Below are positions 23,347 to 31,175 of a stretch of 64,000 bases of DNA, one piece after another. The stretch spans positions 1,514 through 65,513 of the forward strand of contig DASWRD010000093.1 in NCBI GenBank assembly GCA_036403315.1, written 5' to 3'. The DNA is from Candidatus Elarobacter sp. (GTDB lineage: Bacteria; Vulcanimicrobiota; Vulcanimicrobiia; Vulcanimicrobiales; Vulcanimicrobiaceae). Position 1 is the stretch's first letter, and each line of letters starts with the position of its first letter. The position numbers were made by a program, and so were the translations under genes. The notes below the pieces were generated by a model. That model saw only the letters and a program-made list of their open reading frames with translations. It was not told the origin of the DNA and searched no databases.

Positions 23347-23452
23347 CATGACGCAGGCGGCTGCTCGCTAGCGATCGGGGCGGTAGCGAGCGGCGCCCGC
23401 ACGCGGCAGGCTCCCGGGTCCGTTCGGCTTGCGCGTGGTACACTCTCTCGTC

Positions 23453-24460
23453 GTGACCCGTATCGTCCCGCCGCTTCGGATCGGCCCCATCGAGGTCTGG
23501 CCCCCCATCGTGCTCGCGCCGATGTCGGGGGTGACGAACCGCACCCTGCGCGCGCTCTACAAGCCGTTCGGGTTCGGGCTGACCGTGACGGAGTTCGTGT
23601 CGTCGAACGCGCTGCAGTACGGCAACAAGCGCACGATGGAGATGATCGACCAGCACGGCGTCGAGAAGCCGGTCTCCACGCAGCTCTGGGGCAACGACCC
23701 GGCGCTGATGGCGCTCGCCGCCAAGGTCGTGCGCGAGTGCGGCGCCGACATCGTGGACATCAACTTCGGCTGCCCCGCGCCCAAGGTCACCAAGACCGAG
23801 GGCGGCAGCGCGTGCTTGCGCGACGTCGACCGCTGCGAAGCGATCATGCGCGCGGTCGTGGGCGCCGTCGACTGCCCGGTGACGATGAAGATGCGCCTCG
23901 GCTGGACCGAGGACGACCTCGTGTTCGTGGAGGTCGCGAAGCGCGCGCAAGCCGCGGGCGTGCAGGCGCTGACGCTGCACGCGCGCACCGCGAAGCAGTT
24001 CTACAAAGGCAGCGCCGACTGGTCGAAGATCGCGGAGCTCAAGCGCGCCGTGGACATCCCCGTGATCGGCAACGGCGACTTGACCGATCCGCACGAAGCG
24101 CTGCGCCGCATGCGCGACAGCGGCGTAGACGCGGTGATGCTCGGGCGCGCGACGCTGGGCAACCCGTGGCTCGTGTCGCGCCTGCGCGCGCTCATGGAAG
24201 GGCGCGAGCCGCACGCGACGCCCGACGCGCCGGACCGGCTGCGGTTCGCCGTGCACCACTACGAGACGATGGTCGCCGAGTGGGGCGAACCGCGCGCCGT
24301 GCCGCAGATGCGCAAGCACCTCGGCTATTATCTCAAAGGCTTCCCGGGCGCGAGCGCGCTGCGCGAGCGGCTGATGCGCACGGAGACCGCTGCGGAGACG
24401 CTCGCCGTGATCCACGACACGATCGCGCAGCTCGAATCGCGCGAGCTCGCCGTCGCGTGA
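23453..24460 (+). CDS. dusB: tRNA-dihydrouridine synthase
   Basis: LAPMSG, DINFGCP, TMKMRLG, HART, VIGNGD, MLGR..LGNPW. Confidence 0.92.
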   Translation: MTRIVPPLRIGPIEVWPPIVLAPMSGVTNRTLRALYKPFGFGLTVTEFVSSNALQYGNKRTMEMIDQHGVEKPVSTQLWGNDPALMALAAKVVRECGADIVDINFGCPAPKVTKTEGGSACLRDVDRCEAIMRAVVGAVDCPVTMKMRLGWTEDDLVFVEVAKRAQAAGVQALTLHARTAKQFYKGSADWSKIAELKRAVDIPVIGNGDLTDPHEALRRMRDSGVDAVMLGRATLGNPWLVSRLRALMEGREPHATPDAPDRLRFAVHHYETMVAEWGEPRAVPQMRKHLGYYLKGFPGASALRERLMRTETAAETLAVIHDTIAQLESRELAVA

Positions 24461-25779
24461 TCCCCGCAACGCACGACGAGCTGTATGGCGCGGCTTCGCC
24501 CGCGGCCCTGTACGACGAAGTCTACGAGAACTACCGCGCGCACCTGAACCCGCCGCTCGCGCGGGTGATGAAGCTGTCCGGTTCGCCGATCGAGGTGCGC
24601 GCGCAAGGCTGCACGATCACCGACCACACCGGCAAGACGTATCTCGACTTCGCCGGCGGCTACGGCGTGTTCACACTGGGGCACCGCCACCCGCGCGTCG
24701 TCGCGGCGGTGAAAGACCAGCTCGACCGCATGGCGCTGTCGGGGCGCACGATGTTCAACCCGCTGATGGGGCGGCTCGCGAAGCGGCTCGCCGATCTGGC
24801 GCCCGGCGATCTGTCGATCGCGTTCTTCGCCAACAGCGGCACCGAGGCGGTGGAGGGCGCGCTCAAGCTTGCGCGCGCCGCGACGAAGCGCCCGGCCATC
24901 GTCGCGACGGACGGCGCGTTCCACGGCAAGACGCTCGGTGCGCTGTCCGCGAGCGGGCGCGATGCGTTCCGCGAGCCGTTTGCGCCGCTGCTCGCGGACG
25001 TGCGCCGCGTGCCGTTCGGCGACGCGCGCGCGCTGCGAGCCGTCGTCGACGACGCCGTCGCGGCGGTGATCGTCGAGCCGGTGCAGGGCGAGGGCGGCGT
25101 GAACCTGCCGCCGGACGGCTACCTGCGCGACGTGCGCGCGATCTGCGACGCGAGCGGCGCCGTGATGATCGCCGACGAGGTGCAGACGGGGCTCGGGCGC
25201 TGCGGCGCGCTGTTCGCGTGCGACCGCGAGGATGTCGTCCCCGACGTGATCGCGCTCGCGAAAGGCTTGTCCGGCGGCGTGATCCCGATCGGGGCGTACG
25301 TCGCGCGGCCGTCCGTCTGGAACGCGGCGTACGCGAAGCAGCCGCTGCTGCACACGTCCACGTTCGGCGGCAACGAGCTGGCGTGCGCGGCCGCGCTCGC
25401 GGCGCTCGACGTGCTGCACGACGAAGATCTCGTCGCGAACGCGCGCGCGCGCGGCGCGGAGCTTCTCGCCGGTGCGCGCGCGACGATGGCGCGCCACCCT
25501 GCGGTGATCGCGGACGTGCGCGGCGCGGGCCTGCTGGTCGGCGTCGAGCTGCGCAGCGAGGGCTACGGCGGCACGATCATCCCGGAGCTGCTCAAGCGCG
25601 GCGTCACGGCGGCCTGGACGCTCAACCAGCAGCGCGTGATTCGCCTCGAACCGCCGCTGATCGTCACCGCCGAGGAAATCGACGTCGCGCTGCGCGCGTT
25701 CGATGCGGCGGTCGCGGCGGCGTTCGACAGGCTCGGAACGCTGGTCCCGATGTCCGACACGCCCGAAAAGCAGCCGTAG
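24457..25779 (+). CDS. class III PLP aminotransferase
   Basis: YLDFAGGYG, NSGTEAVEGALK, FHGKT, EPVQGEGG, DEVQTGLGR, AKGLSGG, HTSTFGGN. Confidence 0.92.
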   Translation: MIPATHDELYGAASPAALYDEVYENYRAHLNPPLARVMKLSGSPIEVRAQGCTITDHTGKTYLDFAGGYGVFTLGHRHPRVVAAVKDQLDRMALSGRTMFNPLMGRLAKRLADLAPGDLSIAFFANSGTEAVEGALKLARAATKRPAIVATDGAFHGKTLGALSASGRDAFREPFAPLLADVRRVPFGDARALRAVVDDAVAAVIVEPVQGEGGVNLPPDGYLRDVRAICDASGAVMIADEVQTGLGRCGALFACDREDVVPDVIALAKGLSGGVIPIGAYVARPSVWNAAYAKQPLLHTSTFGGNELACAAALAALDVLHDEDLVANARARGAELLAGARATMARHPAVIADVRGAGLLVGVELRSEGYGGTIIPELLKRGVTAAWTLNQQRVIRLEPPLIVTAEEIDVALRAFDAAVAAAFDRLGTLVPMSDTPEKQP

Positions 25780-26246
25780 TGCCGTACGTCGAGTGCACGA
25801 TCGACGTCGCCGCCCCGGCCGCGACGGTGTACGACCTTGCGAAGGAGCAGGAGCGCTTCCCCGACTTCATGCCGGACGTCGAGACGGTCGTCGTGCTGGA
25901 GCGTCATCCCGATCACGTGATCACGCGCTGGAAGACGCTGGTGGAGGACGCGCCGATCGAGTGGACGGAGAACGATCGCTTCGACGACGCGCGCCTGCGC
26001 ATCGATTACGCGCTGATCGAGGGCGACCTCGACACGTTCGAAGGCGCATGGACGTTCGAGCAGCTCGGCGACGTGACGCGCGTGGTGCTCAGCGTCGAGT
26101 ACGACTTCGGCGTGCCGACGCTGGCCGAGCTGATCGGCCCGACGCTGGAGAAAAAAGTGCGCGAGAACTCCGACATGATGCTCGCGGCGCTCAAAGCCGA
26201 GGCGGAATCACGGACGGCCCCGCAGTCGGCGCACGGTATGCGCTGA
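25779..26246 (+). CDS. SRPBCC/START (polyketide cyclase-like) lipid-binding protein
   Basis: E.FPDFMPDV, W.E.D, EGD...FEG.W pattern; start overlaps aminotransferase stop. Confidence 0.85.
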   Translation: MPYVECTIDVAAPAATVYDLAKEQERFPDFMPDVETVVVLERHPDHVITRWKTLVEDAPIEWTENDRFDDARLRIDYALIEGDLDTFEGAWTFEQLGDVTRVVLSVEYDFGVPTLAELIGPTLEKKVRENSDMMLAALKAEAESRTAPQSAHGMR

Positions 26247-27255
26247 ATCGGGCTGCCGTCGATACCGCGCGCGGCGGGATCGCCGCGTGCAGCAGCTCGA
26301 CGGTTCGGAGCAGCTCTTCGGCGTAGCCCGGCTCCTCGAGGCGCGCCGCGTCGAATGCGAGCCCGCGCACGGGGAACGACGCGCGTTCCAGCGCGTCGAG
26401 CAGCACCGGTGCTTTGACCGCGCGGTCTGCGAGCGCGCGCAGGCGCTGCAGCGCGTCTTCCAGCTTCACGACCTCGGTGCGGTATGCGGCGTACTTTGCC
26501 GATTCGGCGGCGGCGCGGTCGCGGATCGTGGGCCAGCGCTCGTCGCGAAAGCGCACGACCTCGGCGTTGCCGCGCTCGGTGAAGCGCCGTTTGCGCGCCG
26601 CGATCAGGCGGTGCTCCTCTTGGTCGGCGAACCGCGGGCCCTTCGCTTTCGCGCGCAGCAGCTCGGCGTGCTCCTGCGCCGTGAAGTCCGTCTCGACGGC
26701 GATGCGGTCGCTGATCGCGGCGAGCTCCTCGCGCCAAATGTCTTCGACCGCGGGCGGCTCGTTGAGCGCGCCGAGCTGGCTGCGCCGCGCCGCCAGCACA
26801 TCGCGCCGCGCGTCGAGCAATCCGCGCAGCCGCGCCACGCCGCCGCGCAGCGTCGCGATCCACGCCGTGTCGGCGGGCGCGCCGGGGTCGTCGAAGCGCA
26901 CGTCGATGCCGAGGCCGAGCGGCTCGATCTCGACGAACCGCCATTGCCCCGGGTCCGCGCCGGGTAGCACGCGCAGGCGGCAGCCGGTGGGCGGCGGGGG
27001 ACCGGTGTGGCGGAACACCGCGAACGCTTCGTTCGTGTCGACGCCGAGCAGCGTCGTGCGCTCGTCGAACACGCGCGCAAACGCGACGATCCCGCCGTAT
27101 GACGTCTCGCCCCACACCGGCTCGTCGACGTCGTCGTAGCGCCGGCTCCACAGCACCGCCCATAGCGCGTCGTGCGCCTCCGCGGCGGCCGCGTGATCGC
27201 GCGTCAGCTTGTCGATGACGGCTCGGACGCTGGAGCGGCGGTACCGGTTCGTCAC
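26191..27255 (-). CDS. hypothetical protein with coiled-coil C-terminal half
   Basis: 354-aa ORF with typical codon usage; convergent overlap with SRPBCC gene. Confidence 0.65.
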   Translation of the reverse strand: MTNRYRRSSVRAVIDKLTRDHAAAAEAHDALWAVLWSRRYDDVDEPVWGETSYGGIVAFARVFDERTTLLGVDTNEAFAVFRHTGPPPPTGCRLRVLPGADPGQWRFVEIEPLGLGIDVRFDDPGAPADTAWIATLRGGVARLRGLLDARRDVLAARRSQLGALNEPPAVEDIWREELAAISDRIAVETDFTAQEHAELLRAKAKGPRFADQEEHRLIAARKRRFTERGNAEVVRFRDERWPTIRDRAAAESAKYAAYRTEVVKLEDALQRLRALADRAVKAPVLLDALERASFPVRGLAFDAARLEEPGYAEELLRTVELLHAAIPPRAVSTAARFSAYRAPTAGPSVIPPRL

Positions 27256-27312
27256 GGTCGCTGCGCTTTCTTCGGACGCGGGCGGTCCCGTTTCACCCGC
27301 GTCCTTCGCTCC

Positions 27313-27981
27313 CTAGTCGGGCTTCGCGAACGCTACGATCGTGTTCTCGCCGCGGCAGTTCGTCCAGAACTTCGTGCCGTCGAAGCCGAGGCTGCGCGCC
27401 GCGAACGGGATCGACGCCAGCTCGTGGACCTCGGGCTCTTCCTTGCGCGCGTCCAAACAGAGCAGCCGGTAGTCGTCGATCTCGCGGCTCTCCGTCGTCA
27501 CGAGGTAGAAGCGCCCCGCGACGACGACCATGCCGGTGATCTGGCGCGGAACGGGGATCGTTCGCAGCACCTTGCCGACGTCGTCGAGTTCGAGGATCAC
27601 TTGCGCGTCGCGCTGGCTCAAGTACAGCCGGTCGCCGTCGTACGCCAGGAACGAACCGGTGCCGCCGGGGCACGGGATCGCGTCGGACTTGAAATCCTTG
27701 CCCATGATGTAGCGTCGTATGAAACGGTCGTCGGTACCGCCGTCTTCGGCGTCGCCGACCACGACGCGCAGCGCGTCGCCGGTGACCGTCAGCCCGAACG
27801 GCCTGCCCGGTGCGGTCGCCTCTTCGAAAACACGGCCCTGCATTGCGACCAAACCGTAGATCCGGCAGGTCTCGTAGGAGCCGATCCAGAGATCCGGCCC
27901 GTCACACGCGAGCCCCATCGGCGAGGGGCAGGGGGCGGGGATCCGGAGGAGCTCATCGATGGTCGAGAGCGTCTGATTCAT
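27313..27981 (-). CDS. beta-propeller protein (glutaminyl-cyclase/YncE-like)
   Basis: Repeated blades GLACDG.DLW, GLTV.GD.L, LAYDGD.LY, LGFDG.KFW. Confidence 0.65.
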   Translation of the reverse strand: MNQTLSTIDELLRIPAPCPSPMGLACDGPDLWIGSYETCRIYGLVAMQGRVFEEATAPGRPFGLTVTGDALRVVVGDAEDGGTDDRFIRRYIMGKDFKSDAIPCPGGTGSFLAYDGDRLYLSQRDAQVILELDDVGKVLRTIPVPRQITGMVVVAGRFYLVTTESREIDDYRLLCLDARKEEPEVHELASIPFAARSLGFDGTKFWTNCRGENTIVAFAKPD

Positions 27982-28048
27982 GCGCCGCTCCCCTTCCCCC
28001 AACGGCCCGCGGGCTCCCGGCGGCGAAGGAGCGAATCGGGGTCCCGGG

Positions 28049-29158
28049 ATGCCCAAGTTCTGCTTCGTGATCCACCCGCTCTCGTTCGAGGATGTCGTGC
28101 GCTACGAGCCCGGCGCCAAGGGCAAGGGCAAGCCCATCATCGCCAAGATCCTCGAGTGGATGCCGGCGTGGAACGCGGCACATGTGACGGGGGTCCGGAC
28201 GCCGGACGGGCGCGAGACCGAGGGCTGGTTCGTCGCCGCCGGTTTGCTGCCGGAGCAGATGCTGGAGCTGCCGCGCGAGCAGGTGTACGACCGCATCCTC
28301 AAAGCGATCCAGCTCGGCGTCGACCTGGGCGCAGAGGTCGCGGGGCTGGGCGCGTTCACCGGCGTCGTCGGCGACGGCGGCGTGACGATCAACGAGCGTT
28401 CGCCGATCCCCGTGACGACCGGCAACTCCCTCACGATCGCCGCCGGCGTGCGCAGCTTGTTCCGCGGCGCGGACGAGATGGGGATCGATGCGTCGCGCGC
28501 GACCGCGGTGGTGGTCGGCGCGACCGGCTCGATCGGGGGCGCCTGCGTGGAGCTGATCGCGCCGCACGTCGCGCACGTGATCCTGGTCGCGCGCAACGAG
28601 ACGCGCTTGCGCAAGTTTCACGAGGGCATTCGCGAGAAGCTGCCGTGCGCGTCGTCGTACACGACCGAGATCGGCGCGGCGGTGCAGCGCGCCGACCTCG
28701 TGCTGACGGCGACGTCGTCGGTGCAGGACGTGATCGAGCCCGAAGACTTGCGCACCGGCGCGGTCGTGTGCGAGCTGTCGCTGCCGCACGACGTCAGCCG
28801 GCGCGTTGCGAGCGAACGGCCCGACGTGCTCGTCGTGGAAGGCGGCAACATGCGCGTGCCCGGCGACATGCGCTGGTGGCGCGTGCGCGAGCCCGGCGAG
28901 ACGTTCGACATGGGACTGCCGCAGGGGACGGCGCTCGCGTGCATGTCGGAGACGATGCTGCTCGCGCTGGAGAACCGCTGCGAACCGTACACGCTGGGCC
29001 GCGGGATCGACGTCGCGAAGGTGCGCGAGATCGACGACCTCGCGGCGCGCGCCGGTTTCCAGCTCGCCGACATGCGCGCGTTCGACCTGCCGATCACGCG
29101 CGAACACATCGCGCGCACCCGCGCCGCGGCGGAAGAACGCCGCGCGGCCTCCGCATGA
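28049..29158 (+). CDS. acyl-ACP/CoA reductase-like NAD(P)-binding protein (COG5322-like)
   Basis: GLGAFT, PVTTGNSLT, VVGATGSIG, ALACMSETMLLALE (putative catalytic Cys), resembling cyanobacterial acyl-ACP reductase. Confidence 0.8.
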   Translation: MPKFCFVIHPLSFEDVVRYEPGAKGKGKPIIAKILEWMPAWNAAHVTGVRTPDGRETEGWFVAAGLLPEQMLELPREQVYDRILKAIQLGVDLGAEVAGLGAFTGVVGDGGVTINERSPIPVTTGNSLTIAAGVRSLFRGADEMGIDASRATAVVVGATGSIGGACVELIAPHVAHVILVARNETRLRKFHEGIREKLPCASSYTTEIGAAVQRADLVLTATSSVQDVIEPEDLRTGAVVCELSLPHDVSRRVASERPDVLVVEGGNMRVPGDMRWWRVREPGETFDMGLPQGTALACMSETMLLALENRCEPYTLGRGIDVAKVREIDDLAARAGFQLADMRAFDLPITREHIARTRAAAEERRAASA

Positions 29159-29634
29159 ACGTTCGCCCGCACCGCTACGCCGCGCACGTGCGCTGGACCG
29201 GTTGCGCATCGGGGCCGGCGCTCGACTACGCGACGTACTCGCGCGAGTACGTCGTGGAGATCGACGGGAAGCCGCCGCTGCGCGGCTCGGCGGACGTGCA
29301 CTTTCGCGGTGACCGGGCACTGCACAATCCGGAGGACTTGCTGGTGGCTGCGCTTTCCGCGTGCCATCTGCTTTCGTACCTCGCGGAATGCTCGCGCGCC
29401 GGGATCGCGGTTGTCGCCTACGAGGATGACGCCGGCGGCGAGATGACGCTGATCGACGGGAAAATCCGCTTTCGCGAGGTGATGCTGCGGCCGCGCGTCG
29501 CGATTGCCGATCCGGCGCGCATCGACGAGGCCGTTGCATTGCACGAGCGCGCGCACGCAGAGTGCTTCATCGCGAACAGCGTGAACTTTCCCGTCCGCCA
29601 CGAAGCGACCGTGACGAGCGCGCAACCGGCGTGA
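29155..29634 (+). CDS. OsmC/Ohr family protein
   Basis: NPEDLLVAALSACH.L, AH..CFIANSV. Confidence 0.92.
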   Translation: MNVRPHRYAAHVRWTGCASGPALDYATYSREYVVEIDGKPPLRGSADVHFRGDRALHNPEDLLVAALSACHLLSYLAECSRAGIAVVAYEDDAGGEMTLIDGKIRFREVMLRPRVAIADPARIDEAVALHERAHAECFIANSVNFPVRHEATVTSAQPA

Positions 29635-29806
29635 GCAGCATGGAAAAGACGCTGCGAGCGCAGAGTCTTGCAACGCGACGCCCACAGCGTGAGAGCTCCC
29701 CATCACTCGACGGACTGACAGCTCCGCCGAACGTCGACAACCTCTCGTTAGGACAGGTATCACCCGGCCAGTTCGCAGCGCAATACCTAACTCTCGAGCT
29801 TGGCCG

Positions 29807-29850
29807 AAAAGAAAAGGCGACGGGCACCGCGTTCGATGAACGCGATGCCC
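29807..29850 (-). terminator. terminator-like stem, repeat unit 1
   Basis: 13-bp stem GGGCATCGCGTTC/GAACGCGGTGCCC (one U.G on minus strand), then GTCGCC and TTTTCTTTT. Confidence 0.6.
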
Positions 29851-29920
29851 GCGACGGTGTAACGAGTGGGCTTGACAACACCATCTTATCACACCGCAAC
29901 CGGCGCCGCAAACGCCGGGC

Positions 29921-29990
29921 TGGAGCGAGCGGGAGTCGAACCCGCACGAGATGGAGGTCAAGCCCATTCGTCGGACCGCCGAATCGCCCC
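29921..29990 (-). ncRNA. 70-nt tRNA/tmRNA-like domain, copy 1
   Basis: GGGGCGA/TCGCTCC acceptor with G3.U70 and discriminator A; mini D-arm TCGG-CGGT-CCGA; arm with CTTGACC loop; T-arm GCGGG-TTCGACT-CCCGC; no encoded CCA. Confidence 0.7.
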
Positions 29991-30038
29991 AGCGCTGTGT
30001 ACATCACGCTGCGTAGTGCAATCGGCAAGGGACCATTT

Positions 30039-30078
30039 GAAAAAGCGACGGGCACCGCGTTCGATGAACGCGATGCCC
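30039..30078 (-). terminator. terminator-like stem, repeat unit 2
   Basis: Same 13-bp stem, followed by GTCGC and TTTTT. Confidence 0.6.
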
Positions 30079-30147
30079 TAGGCGGTATGACAGGAGACCT
30101 TGACGCGATGATCCTACCACACCGCCGCCGGCGTCGCAACGCCGGGC

Positions 30148-30217
30148 TGGAGCGAGCGGGAATCGAACCCGCGCAGGAAGAGTGTCAAAGTCCCCTGTCG
30201 GACCACCGAATTGCCCC
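30148..30217 (-). ncRNA. 70-nt tRNA/tmRNA-like domain, copy 2
   Basis: GGGGCAA/TCGCTCC acceptor (G3.U70, one A.C mismatch); TCGG-TGGT-CCGA; arm with TTTGACA loop; T-arm GCGGG-TTCGATT-CCCGC. Confidence 0.7.
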
Positions 30218-30263
30218 AGCGCTGTGTACATCACCCGTCGATCGCGATTGGAAAGGCCCTGAC

Positions 30264-31175
30264 GTGAAGAAAGTCGTCTCCGTCTCGCTCGGGTCTTCGT
30301 CGCGCGATCATCGTGCCGATGTCGATCTGCTCGGCGAGCGGTTCGAGATATCGCGCGTCGGGACCGACGGCTCCATCGATAAAGCGATCGCGAAGCTCAA
30401 GGAGCTCGACGGTACCGTCGACGCGATCGGGCTCGGCGGGATCGACGTGTATCTGTACGCGGGCAAGGACCGGTATGCGCTGCGTGATGGCTTGCGGCTG
30501 CTCGATGCGGTAAAGATCACGCCCGTCGTCGACGGCAGCGGGCTCAAGAACACGCTGGAGCGCAACGCGATCTCATTCATCCAGACGCAACTCGGCATCG
30601 AGCTGCGCGGGAAGCGCGTGCTGATGGTCAGCGCGCTCGACCGGTTCGGGATGGCGCAGGCGCTGGTGCAGGCCGGCGCGGACGTCGTGTTCGGCGACTT
30701 CATCTTCGCGCTCGACCTCGACCGGCCGGTGCGCGGGCTCGACGAGTTCGAAGAGATGGCGCGCAAGTATCTCCCCGACGCGTGCAAGCTGCCGTTCCAG
30801 TTCTTCTATCCCACCGGCAAGAAACAAGACCGTGCGCCGCAGCCGAAGTATCCCGAGTACTACGACGACGCGGAGATCATCGCGGGCGACTACCACTTCA
30901 TGCGCCAGTTCATGCCCGACCGGCTCGACGGCAAGACGATCCTCACCAACACGGTCACCGCGAACGACGTCGACTTCCTGCGCGCGCGCGGGATCGCGCG
31001 GCTCGTCACGACGACGCCCGATTTCGGCGGGCGTTCGTTCGGCACGAACGTCGTCGAAGCGGCGATGATCGCGCTGCTCGGCAAAAAGTGGGCCGACGTG
31101 ACGGACGAGGATTACGCGCGGCTGCTGCGCGAGCTCGACCTCAAGCCGCGCGTGATCGAGTTCCAGGCCGCATAA
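30264..31175 (+). CDS. conserved protein of the family usually labelled 'quinate 5-dehydrogenase'
   Basis: GTG after GAAAGG; KKVVSVSLGSS.RD, GTDG, GLGGID, VDGSGLKNTLER, DRFGM, GRSFGTNVVEA. Function label is unverified. Confidence 0.75.
   Translation: MKKVVSVSLGSSSRDHRADVDLLGERFEISRVGTDGSIDKAIAKLKELDGTVDAIGLGGIDVYLYAGKDRYALRDGLRLLDAVKITPVVDGSGLKNTLERNAISFIQTQLGIELRGKRVLMVSALDRFGMAQALVQAGADVVFGDFIFALDLDRPVRGLDEFEEMARKYLPDACKLPFQFFYPTGKKQDRAPQPKYPEYYDDAEIIAGDYHFMRQFMPDRLDGKTILTNTVTANDVDFLRARGIARLVTTTPDFGGRSFGTNVVEAAMIALLGKKWADVTDEDYARLLRELDLKPRVIEFQAA

Follow-up and report, generated by a model that had tools for sequence, protein, structure and literature searches.

Tandem tRNA-like and antisense RNA units in Candidatus Elarobacter: a candidate RNA-only toxin-antitoxin system linked to a putative competence promoter

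Type VIII toxin-antitoxin (TA) systems, such as SdsR/RyeA and CreT/CreA, consist of RNA on both sides, with an RNA antitoxin restraining an RNA toxin (PMC11951105), and the CreT toxins act by way of tRNA supply (PMC8501985). Natural tRNAs can also be harmful themselves. The allo-tRNAs reported by Mukai et al. (PMC5389517) are natural bacterial tRNAs with serine or alanine (G3·U70) identity and mismatched anticodons, which act as toxic missense suppressors that kill E. coli and often lie near TA genes; the parts of that paper examined describe no antisense partner for them. The tRNA-ProX genes of Streptomyces and Kitasatospora likewise encode natural mistranslating tRNAs of dual identity (PMC11415595), and the words 'antisense' and 'toxin' are absent (0 occurrences) from that review. 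Unusual tRNA shapes are known from tRNA-Pyl and mitochondrial tRNA-Ser(UCN), which have a connector of 0-1 nt between acceptor and D-stem, a 4-5 nt D-loop, a lengthened anticodon stem that sometimes carries a 3' bulge, and a short variable loop (PMC7609411).

We describe here a family of ~200-nt RNA units that shares features with each of these systems. It also recalls the type I TA system hok/sok, in which a long transcript masks itself and is opposed by a separately promoted short antisense RNA, and which has diversified into specificity groups and left orphan antitoxins. The units would resemble hok/sok in self-masking, in an antisense with its own promoter, in the diversification of specificity and in orphan antitoxins, but the aligned units contain no conserved toxin ORF apparent by eye and the masked element is an anticodon. 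The predicted toxin differs from those of type VIII systems in being a chargeable tRNA, with a putative antitoxin that pairs with its anticodon arm; there is no Cas protein, and the two RNAs are arranged in tandem on one strand rather than on opposite strands. Allo-tRNAs have an 8/4 or 9/3 branch and a long variable arm (PMC5389517), whereas the units have a 7/5 branch, a variable loop of 1-2 nt and an anticodon stem of ~8 bp, and we therefore do not place them among the allo-tRNAs. Four signature strings of the unit family gave 0 matches in the text of the supplement to that paper (figures excluded). The tRNA-ProX group differs in its proline identity, its alanine, asparagine and threonine anticodons, its phylum and its fold (PMC11415595), and tRNA-Pyl and mitochondrial tRNA-Ser(UCN) are cognate adaptors with a 6-bp anticodon stem, as against ~8 bp here (PMC7609411), and are not known to have an antisense partner.

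The locus lies in a 64,000-nucleotide stretch of Candidatus Elarobacter DNA, which we call the window. Two direct-repeat units, 79-82% identical and spaced 227-228 nt from start to start, occupy positions 29811-30234 of its minus strand. The original prediction had described a tandem array of a single tRNA-mimic RNA with additional hairpins. The two-copy repeat is real and its copies are adjacent, but the family in this genome is not confined to the pair, as a third full unit with an adjoining orphan module of the downstream type is present on contig C110. Both cloverleaf cores are found where they had been predicted (30148-30217 and 29921-29990), complete with T-arm, 4-bp D-stem and GGGGC.A/T.GCTCC-A acceptor with G3·U70; both lack an encoded CCA and can extend the acceptor by GCT/AGC, and the terminator-like stems are hairpins in both units. 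What had been called a 'GC hairpin' and a 'long variable hairpin' are more plausibly an internal promoter and an antisense segment. Because the downstream half carries a promoter of its own and is complementary to the anticodon arm of the same unit, each unit is not one RNA but two genes, one tRNA-like and one antisense. The own-arm complementarity, the internal promoter, the restricted non-alanine anticodons and an upstream motif shared with competence genes had all been overlooked.

The upper copy, unit A, begins with the motif CTTTCC-13 nt-GGGTGAT (30230-30255, minus strand), which belongs to the class found before competence genes, is a predicted sigma-H promoter, and overlaps the 5' region of a divergent gene starting at 30264. 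Its tRNA-like core (30148-30217, minus) has a 7-bp alanine-type acceptor with G3·U70 and A73, a canonical T-arm, no CCA, a 4-bp D-stem closed by a UGGU loop, and a long anticodon arm with the 9-nt loop CUUUGACAC, in which the family register places the anticodon GAC at 30186-30184. The former 'GC hairpin' contains a consensus match to a sigma-70-type promoter, TTGCGA-17-TGgTAGGAT (30111-30139, minus), followed by the antisense segment (30081-30104, minus), which pairs with the unit's own anticodon loop, 5' anticodon strand and D-arm in a duplex of -40.0 kcal/mol. A terminator-like hairpin and T-run (30039-30078, minus) follow, at which precursor and antisense RNA are both predicted to end.

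Unit B has the same layout on the same strand, with an upstream promoter motif CTTGCC-14 nt-GCGTGAT (30003-30029) that is the fifth-best match of the motif profile in the genome, a core with the loop GCUUGACCU (29921-29990), an internal consensus promoter TTGCGG-17-TGaTAAGAT (29883-29912), an antisense segment that pairs with its own anticodon loop and D-arm at -36.9 kcal/mol (29852-29876), and a terminator-like hairpin with T-run (29811-29852). Its anticodon is GAC in the family register (29959-29957), or UGA if the loop is shortened to 7 nt by a closing G·U pair, which is how ARAGORN calls it. The units do not cross-pair, with own energies of -24.1 and -22.0 kcal/mol against -12.0 and -11.1 kcal/mol for the crossed combinations. 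Folded whole, they have z-scores of -7.5 and -6.2, with none of 200 shuffles equally stable, and in the lowest-energy structure the cloverleaf gives way to a long duplex of the D/anticodon arm with the downstream segment.

On one side of the units is an osmC-like gene, convergent with them, and on the other a divergent gene that has no Pfam match, amid housekeeping genes. The operon around them (23429-31175), which encodes a class III aminotransferase, a polyketide cyclase, a shikimate dehydrogenase-like protein and OsmC, has no connection with the RNA units. The interval from osmC to unit B contains a single-copy intergenic stretch of ~175 nt (29635-29810) with three or four hairpins (z -2.3) and a terminator-like end; it has no Rfam match, a contig from a relative skips it, and it is possibly another small RNA or an insertion.

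The RNA family belongs to no Rfam family, in support of the original prediction: it is tRNA-like, conserved and unnamed, has AlaRS identity and is neither tmRNA nor canonical tRNA. Scanning the region and ten related loci yielded only sub-threshold matches to tRNA-Sec, tRNA and tmRNA. The tRNA-Sec matches score 34.5 and 26.9 bits, below the cut-off of 47, and delete the variable arm in the alignment, whereas tRNA-Sec has a UCA anticodon, a long D-stem, a variable arm and a score of at least 47 bits; the tRNA model (RF00005) reaches at most 26.7 bits on relatives (cut-off 29). ARAGORN called only unit B, as tRNA-Ser(UGA), leaving unit A uncalled, and at a relaxed score its calls across the genome were mostly noise. 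Compared with canonical tRNA-Ala, the units have G3·U70, A73 and the 7/5 branch but not an NGC anticodon, a 5-bp anticodon stem or a full D-loop.

Resemblance to the tRNA-like domain of tmRNA is closer, in that the acceptor (GGGGC/GCUCC-A), the GG-n-UCGAC motif and the CCGGG/CCCGG T-stem match the ends of the genome's own tmRNA better than its tRNA-Ala, such that descent of the tRNA-like half from tmRNA is possible. The units differ from tmRNA in having a D-stem and a closed anticodon loop and no tag ORF or pseudoknots; relatives score only 25-28 bits against a tmRNA cut-off of 47, and a full tmRNA is encoded separately on contig C132 (2402-2764), where GGGGCGG replaces the usual TTCRA T-loop. 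YrlA, the bacterial Y RNA, adjoins Ro60. The units have no Rfam match to it, and the TROVE genes of this genome lie on contigs C14 and C74 rather than on C93 or C110, with none among the flanking ORFs. On C14 (35179-37373), ~3 kb downstream of TROVE/Ro60, about 22 tRNA genes are followed by an ORF that by eye resembles an HNH endonuclease; this array looks horizontally acquired, with an RNA-repair neighbourhood.

Within the phylum the units are patchily distributed, with matches in two of the families searched. A covariance model matched 38 of 151 phylum genomes (33 of 71 in the genome's own family, four of nine in a second and none of 70 in the other families searched), and BLAST matched 48 of 101 related genomes and 37 of 43 in the genus, its weakest matches being ordinary T-arms. 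Pattern scans recovered 94 stretches from a genome collection, mostly titled Eremiobacterota or Vulcanimicrobiota, and 107 from metagenomes; two patterns gave 0 matches in viral contigs. The genome-collection pattern demanded a gap of at least 45 nt, which misses the shorter class to which the window's own units belong, so spread outside the phylum is under-sampled. A few matches are titled Gemmatimonadota, Babeliales, Gammaproteobacteria, Acidiferrales or Alphaproteobacteria, and these may be mislabelled bins. Three of the 94 genome-collection matches (L101, L102 and L164) are non-members and L049, with its 5' half replaced, was dropped; the units at L015 and L042 come from genome G033 and the dprA region L362 from G072, both marked unpublished, and no conclusion rests on these two genomes. 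From 355 parsed loci we obtained 229 distinct cores, of which 223 belong to the family. The units occur at many unrelated sites and in tandem, in variable copy number. Among 113 of the 123 called flanking ORFs there was no integrase, transposase, synthetase paralogue, Ro60 or recurring TA protein, only varied housekeeping genes.

Across the family the core measures 68-74 nt, with a 7-bp acceptor, a 5-bp T-stem, a 4-bp D-stem, a D-loop of 4-6 nt that keeps GG, a 7/5 branch, and a variable loop of 1-2 nt without conserved sequence. G3·U70 and A73 are each present in 224 of 229 parsed cores, figures partly imposed by fetch patterns that favoured them, and CCA is encoded in 0 of 223 units. Compensatory changes are found in all four stems. 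In 56 ungapped 72-nt cores 97% of cells are paired, a level reached by none of 500 shuffles, and all seven tested pairs of the anticodon stem show double-sided changes; the D-stem variants covary as TCGA/TCGA, TCGG/CCGA, TTGA/TCAA, TTGG/CCAA and TCCC/GGGA. The anticodon stem has about eight layers, perfect or with a 3' bulge, and under the Steinberg-Cedergren rules four D and eight anticodon layers would preserve the 12-layer arm of the L.

Motif-based tallies of the anticodon are circular and we therefore relied on geometry alone, which for 211 cores gives GAT (88), GAC (51), GAG (32), GAA (3), CAG (2), CAC (2), GTC (2), TGA/CGA (22) and others (9); an alanine anticodon (NGC) in register occurs in none of the 211. 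The commonest class has a 7-nt loop with the anticodon at its centre, as in CU-GAU-AC. Loops of 9 nt are also frequent and include both window units, making their register ambiguous, such that they read GAC (Val) in the family register and UGA (Ser) when one more pair closes the loop. The codons that match the family anticodons are among the most used in the genome, and in nine window ORFs AUC accounts for 132 of 138 Ile codons, UUC for 120 of 128 Phe, GUC for 118 of 260 Val and CUC for 137 of 343 Leu. Counting against decoding as a missense tRNA, C occupies position 33 in 40 of 130 units and position 37 in 18 of 130. YUNR is a loop-recognition motif, and we rejected it as the cause of loop conservation since position 33 is often C and CAG, CAC, UAA, GUC and GCC variants occur. 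Seven loci (L222, L233, L304, L336, L337, L338 and L350) carry GUC (Asp), GCC (Gly) or UAA (Leu) anticodons, each tracked by its antisense.

The downstream half has the features expected of a separate antisense gene. A strict sigma-70-type consensus (TTG...-17-TGnTAnnnT) is present in 118 of 135 units against a shuffle mean of 0.05, with a 17-nt spacer in 113 units, and in 129 of 130 units complementarity to the anticodon arm sets in 5-8 nt past the -10 box, where transcription would start. Own-pair duplexes average -29.8±5.0 kcal/mol and those with other partners -16.4±4.8 kcal/mol, and the anticodon is wholly paired with its own antisense in 207 of 209 units. Ranked among 130 partners, the own antisense comes first for 70 units and within the top three for 101, the lower first-place count arising because related units cross-pair. 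Complementarity is retained as unit sequences diverge, and switches among GAU, GAC, GAG, GAA, CAG, CAC and GUC are tracked by the antisense. The next ORF downstream is convergent in 54 of 60 loci with a called ORF, so the short transcript is not a leader. In the second family (L336-L338) the trailer holds an extra antisense hairpin ahead of a near-perfect promoter and antisense segment, giving two antisense copies.

Dependence between the halves appears to run one way. Up to 55 of 263 promoter-antisense-terminator modules lack a parsed intact tRNA, an upper figure that includes damaged tRNA halves missed by the parser and at least one match that is doubtful. Only two of 217 tRNA halves with sufficient flank lack a good antisense of their own, and both have a matching module adjoining; at one further locus (L279) an intact-looking tRNA half has no antisense within the flank sequence. 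Most loci were fetched through the tRNA half, so sampling is biased against the asymmetry observed. At six loci (L002, L028, L036, L085, L275 and L320) a neighbouring orphan module pairs better than the unit's own segment (-31.7 against -19.1 kcal/mol at L002), and such better-matching, separately terminated neighbours fit action in trans. In five genomes picked for having no strong match, the site orthologous to that in the window is empty in three and holds the antisense module alone in two, a path of decay that would be expected if the tRNA is the harmful partner.

The upstream motif, CTTGYC-13/14 nt-GCGTGAW, ends 11-12 nt ahead of G1 in 121 of 130 units. It is found in 177 of 223 units, ahead of 18 of 28 dprA genes and in 1 of 84 control windows; the 10 dprA regions without it count against a link to sigma-H. 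The 45 best matches of the motif profile over the source genome include sites before dprA, rpsF-ssb and comEA, a lytic transglycosylase and four Uma2 nucleases (20 regions were fetched and 22 ORFs scanned), and the motif is also seen by eye upstream of comEC. A further match (L182) precedes a gene without a Pfam match that is presumably comF-like. The genome encodes a sigma-H above the NCBIfam cut-off among 18 sigma-70 region-2 matches, and the presence of sigH together with a motif common to the units, comEA, comEC, dprA and ssb suggests by co-occurrence that sigma-H reads the motif. Sigma-H activates competence genes in Lactobacillus sakei (PMC3364868). Genome-wide, a promoter class CCCTTGCCG-12-CGCGTGAT (for example at L176, L177, L189 and L193) precedes dprA, comEA, comEC, rpsF-ssb and four Uma2 genes, and has an internal site ahead of rnhB. 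This class probably marks out the sigma-H competence regulon of these bacteria and points to natural transformability.

Taken together, these data favour, at a probability of roughly 0.55, the interpretation that the unit is an RNA-only TA system, with a missense Ala-tRNA induced in competence as its toxin and an antisense RNA to the anticodon arm of that tRNA as its antitoxin. Evidence at the sequence level comes from the covarying cloverleaf, G3·U70 and A73, the restricted anticodon set, the internal promoter, unit-specific pairing, the terminator and the upstream motif. In the proposed scheme, sigma-H would fire the upstream promoter in competence, and the resulting precursor of ~200 nt would keep its anticodon arm masked by its own 3' half. 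Cleavage by RNase P, trimming at the 3' end and the action of the CCA-adding enzyme would set free a stable tRNA for charging by AlaRS, which ignores the anticodon. A ~65-nt antisense RNA from the housekeeping promoter would bind the anticodon loop and unzip the anticodon and D arms, also in trans. Should the antisense supply fail, for instance when transformation swaps in an empty allele, the tRNA would be left unneutralised and would insert alanine at abundant Ile, Val, Leu and Phe codons (AUC, GUC, CUC, UUC), leading to arrest or death, and this would protect the module from loss. Variants of tRNA-Ala with altered anticodons mistranslate and slow growth in yeast (PMC10543346). Selfish DNA and curing by transformation have been set against each other as a chromosome-curing conflict (PMC12378983), and a toxin made only in competence would, in line with this, penalise transformational deletion of the unit. 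The stretch was represented in only two RNA runs, at 6-8% of words, by a few low-depth contigs; one of these spans the upstream promoter, and they show neither ends nor an added CCA.

The sequence-level findings match a type VIII system in that there is a candidate toxin-specific RNA antitoxin, with promoter consensus, terminator and unit-specific complementarity, and in that neither a protein toxin nor a protein antitoxin was found, the ~200-nt unit lying between unrelated housekeeping genes (113 flanking ORFs). If toxicity holds, the unit would be classed with the loosely defined type VIII systems, as a variant not described before. More tentatively, and with somewhat less than even confidence, we propose that it is a selfish, protein-free addiction module of ~200 nt with a reprogrammable tRNA toxin that would turn Ile, Val, Leu and Phe (and some Asp and Gly) codons into alanine through a 4+8 D/anticodon architecture beyond that of described working tRNAs; it would be armed only in natural competence and held by the anticodon-targeting antisense, so that curing by transformation would poison the proteome, with the orphan antisense modules serving as an immunity archive against incoming variants.

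The same poison and antidote could work without decoding, the Ala-charged tRNA jamming translation by stalling or frameshifting at cognate codons through its over-long anticodon arm, or sequestering EF-Tu, AlaRS or SmpB as a free tmRNA tRNA-like domain would; we consider this unlikely. The working tRNAs described in PMC7609411 have anticodon stems of 5-6 bp, and the stem of about eight layers, with its frequent 9-nt loops, may fail to decode. The conserved 3-bp GCT/AGC extension could likewise yield a 10-bp acceptor that EF-Tu rejects, the tmRNA-like ends and sub-threshold tmRNA matches on relatives point the same way, and several natural allo-tRNAs were inactive in suppression while two killed cells (PMC5389517). 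Against it stand the restricted, tRNA-like anticodons, which are centred in the 7-nt loop of the commonest class and whose switches are tracked by the antisense, and the variable loop of 1-2 nt without conserved sequence. The covarying D-stem also argues against it, as tmRNA has none. It is unlikely, too, that the units serve the host as a dosed mistranslation device or growth brake in competence, with the antisense setting a threshold and the tRNA slowing growth or diversifying the proteome without addiction. Such a role would account for a promoter motif common to core competence genes and for units placed between housekeeping genes with no integrase or transposase nearby, and competence-regulated TA systems of unclear role exist (PMC11951105). 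Patchy presence, variable copy number, fast-diversifying pairing specificity, empty or antisense-only orthologous sites and the orphan asymmetry all fit a selfish module better.

Phage P1 C4 and P4 CI are immunity RNAs with a prophage context and a downstream regulated gene. The units are reminiscent of them in that a cloverleaf of RNase P type can pair with a downstream segment lying between a promoter and a terminator, and the tRNA-shaped RNA might then be a regulator that binds the short transcript, in termination control or as an sRNA sponge. This reading is largely refuted by context and we hold it improbable: there is no co-directional target gene, the next ORF being mostly convergent, there is no Rfam match to C4 or c4-a1b1, the unit patterns have 0 matches in viral contigs, the short module survives alone when the tRNA half does not, and alanine identity and anticodon restriction would go unexplained. 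Least credible, to the point that we give it hardly any weight, is that the units are decayed tRNA or tmRNA genes, attachment-site remnants or a miniature mobile repeat with mere inverted-repeat complementarity. In favour of this are their tmRNA-like ends and their scatter over many unrelated sites and tandem copies; against it are compensatory changes in all four stems, two conserved promoters at fixed spacing, and a complementarity that starts at the predicted transcription start and is maintained despite divergence.

In the literature searched, with subscription papers thinly covered, no tRNA toxin and no anticodon-masking antitoxin RNA is described. If the RNA-only TA interpretation is correct, these units would constitute a TA system with a tRNA as toxin and an anticodon-masking RNA as antitoxin, would provide natural missense tRNAs with a control and a purpose, both left open for the allo-tRNAs (PMC5389517), and would widen the range of tRNA shapes known to work on the ribosome. 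They would also offer a direct test of selfish DNA defending itself against transformational curing (PMC12378983). The family supplies over 200 natural pairs of tRNA and anti-tRNA specificity, and with it a likely sigma-H competence promoter is defined for a barely cultured soil phylum.
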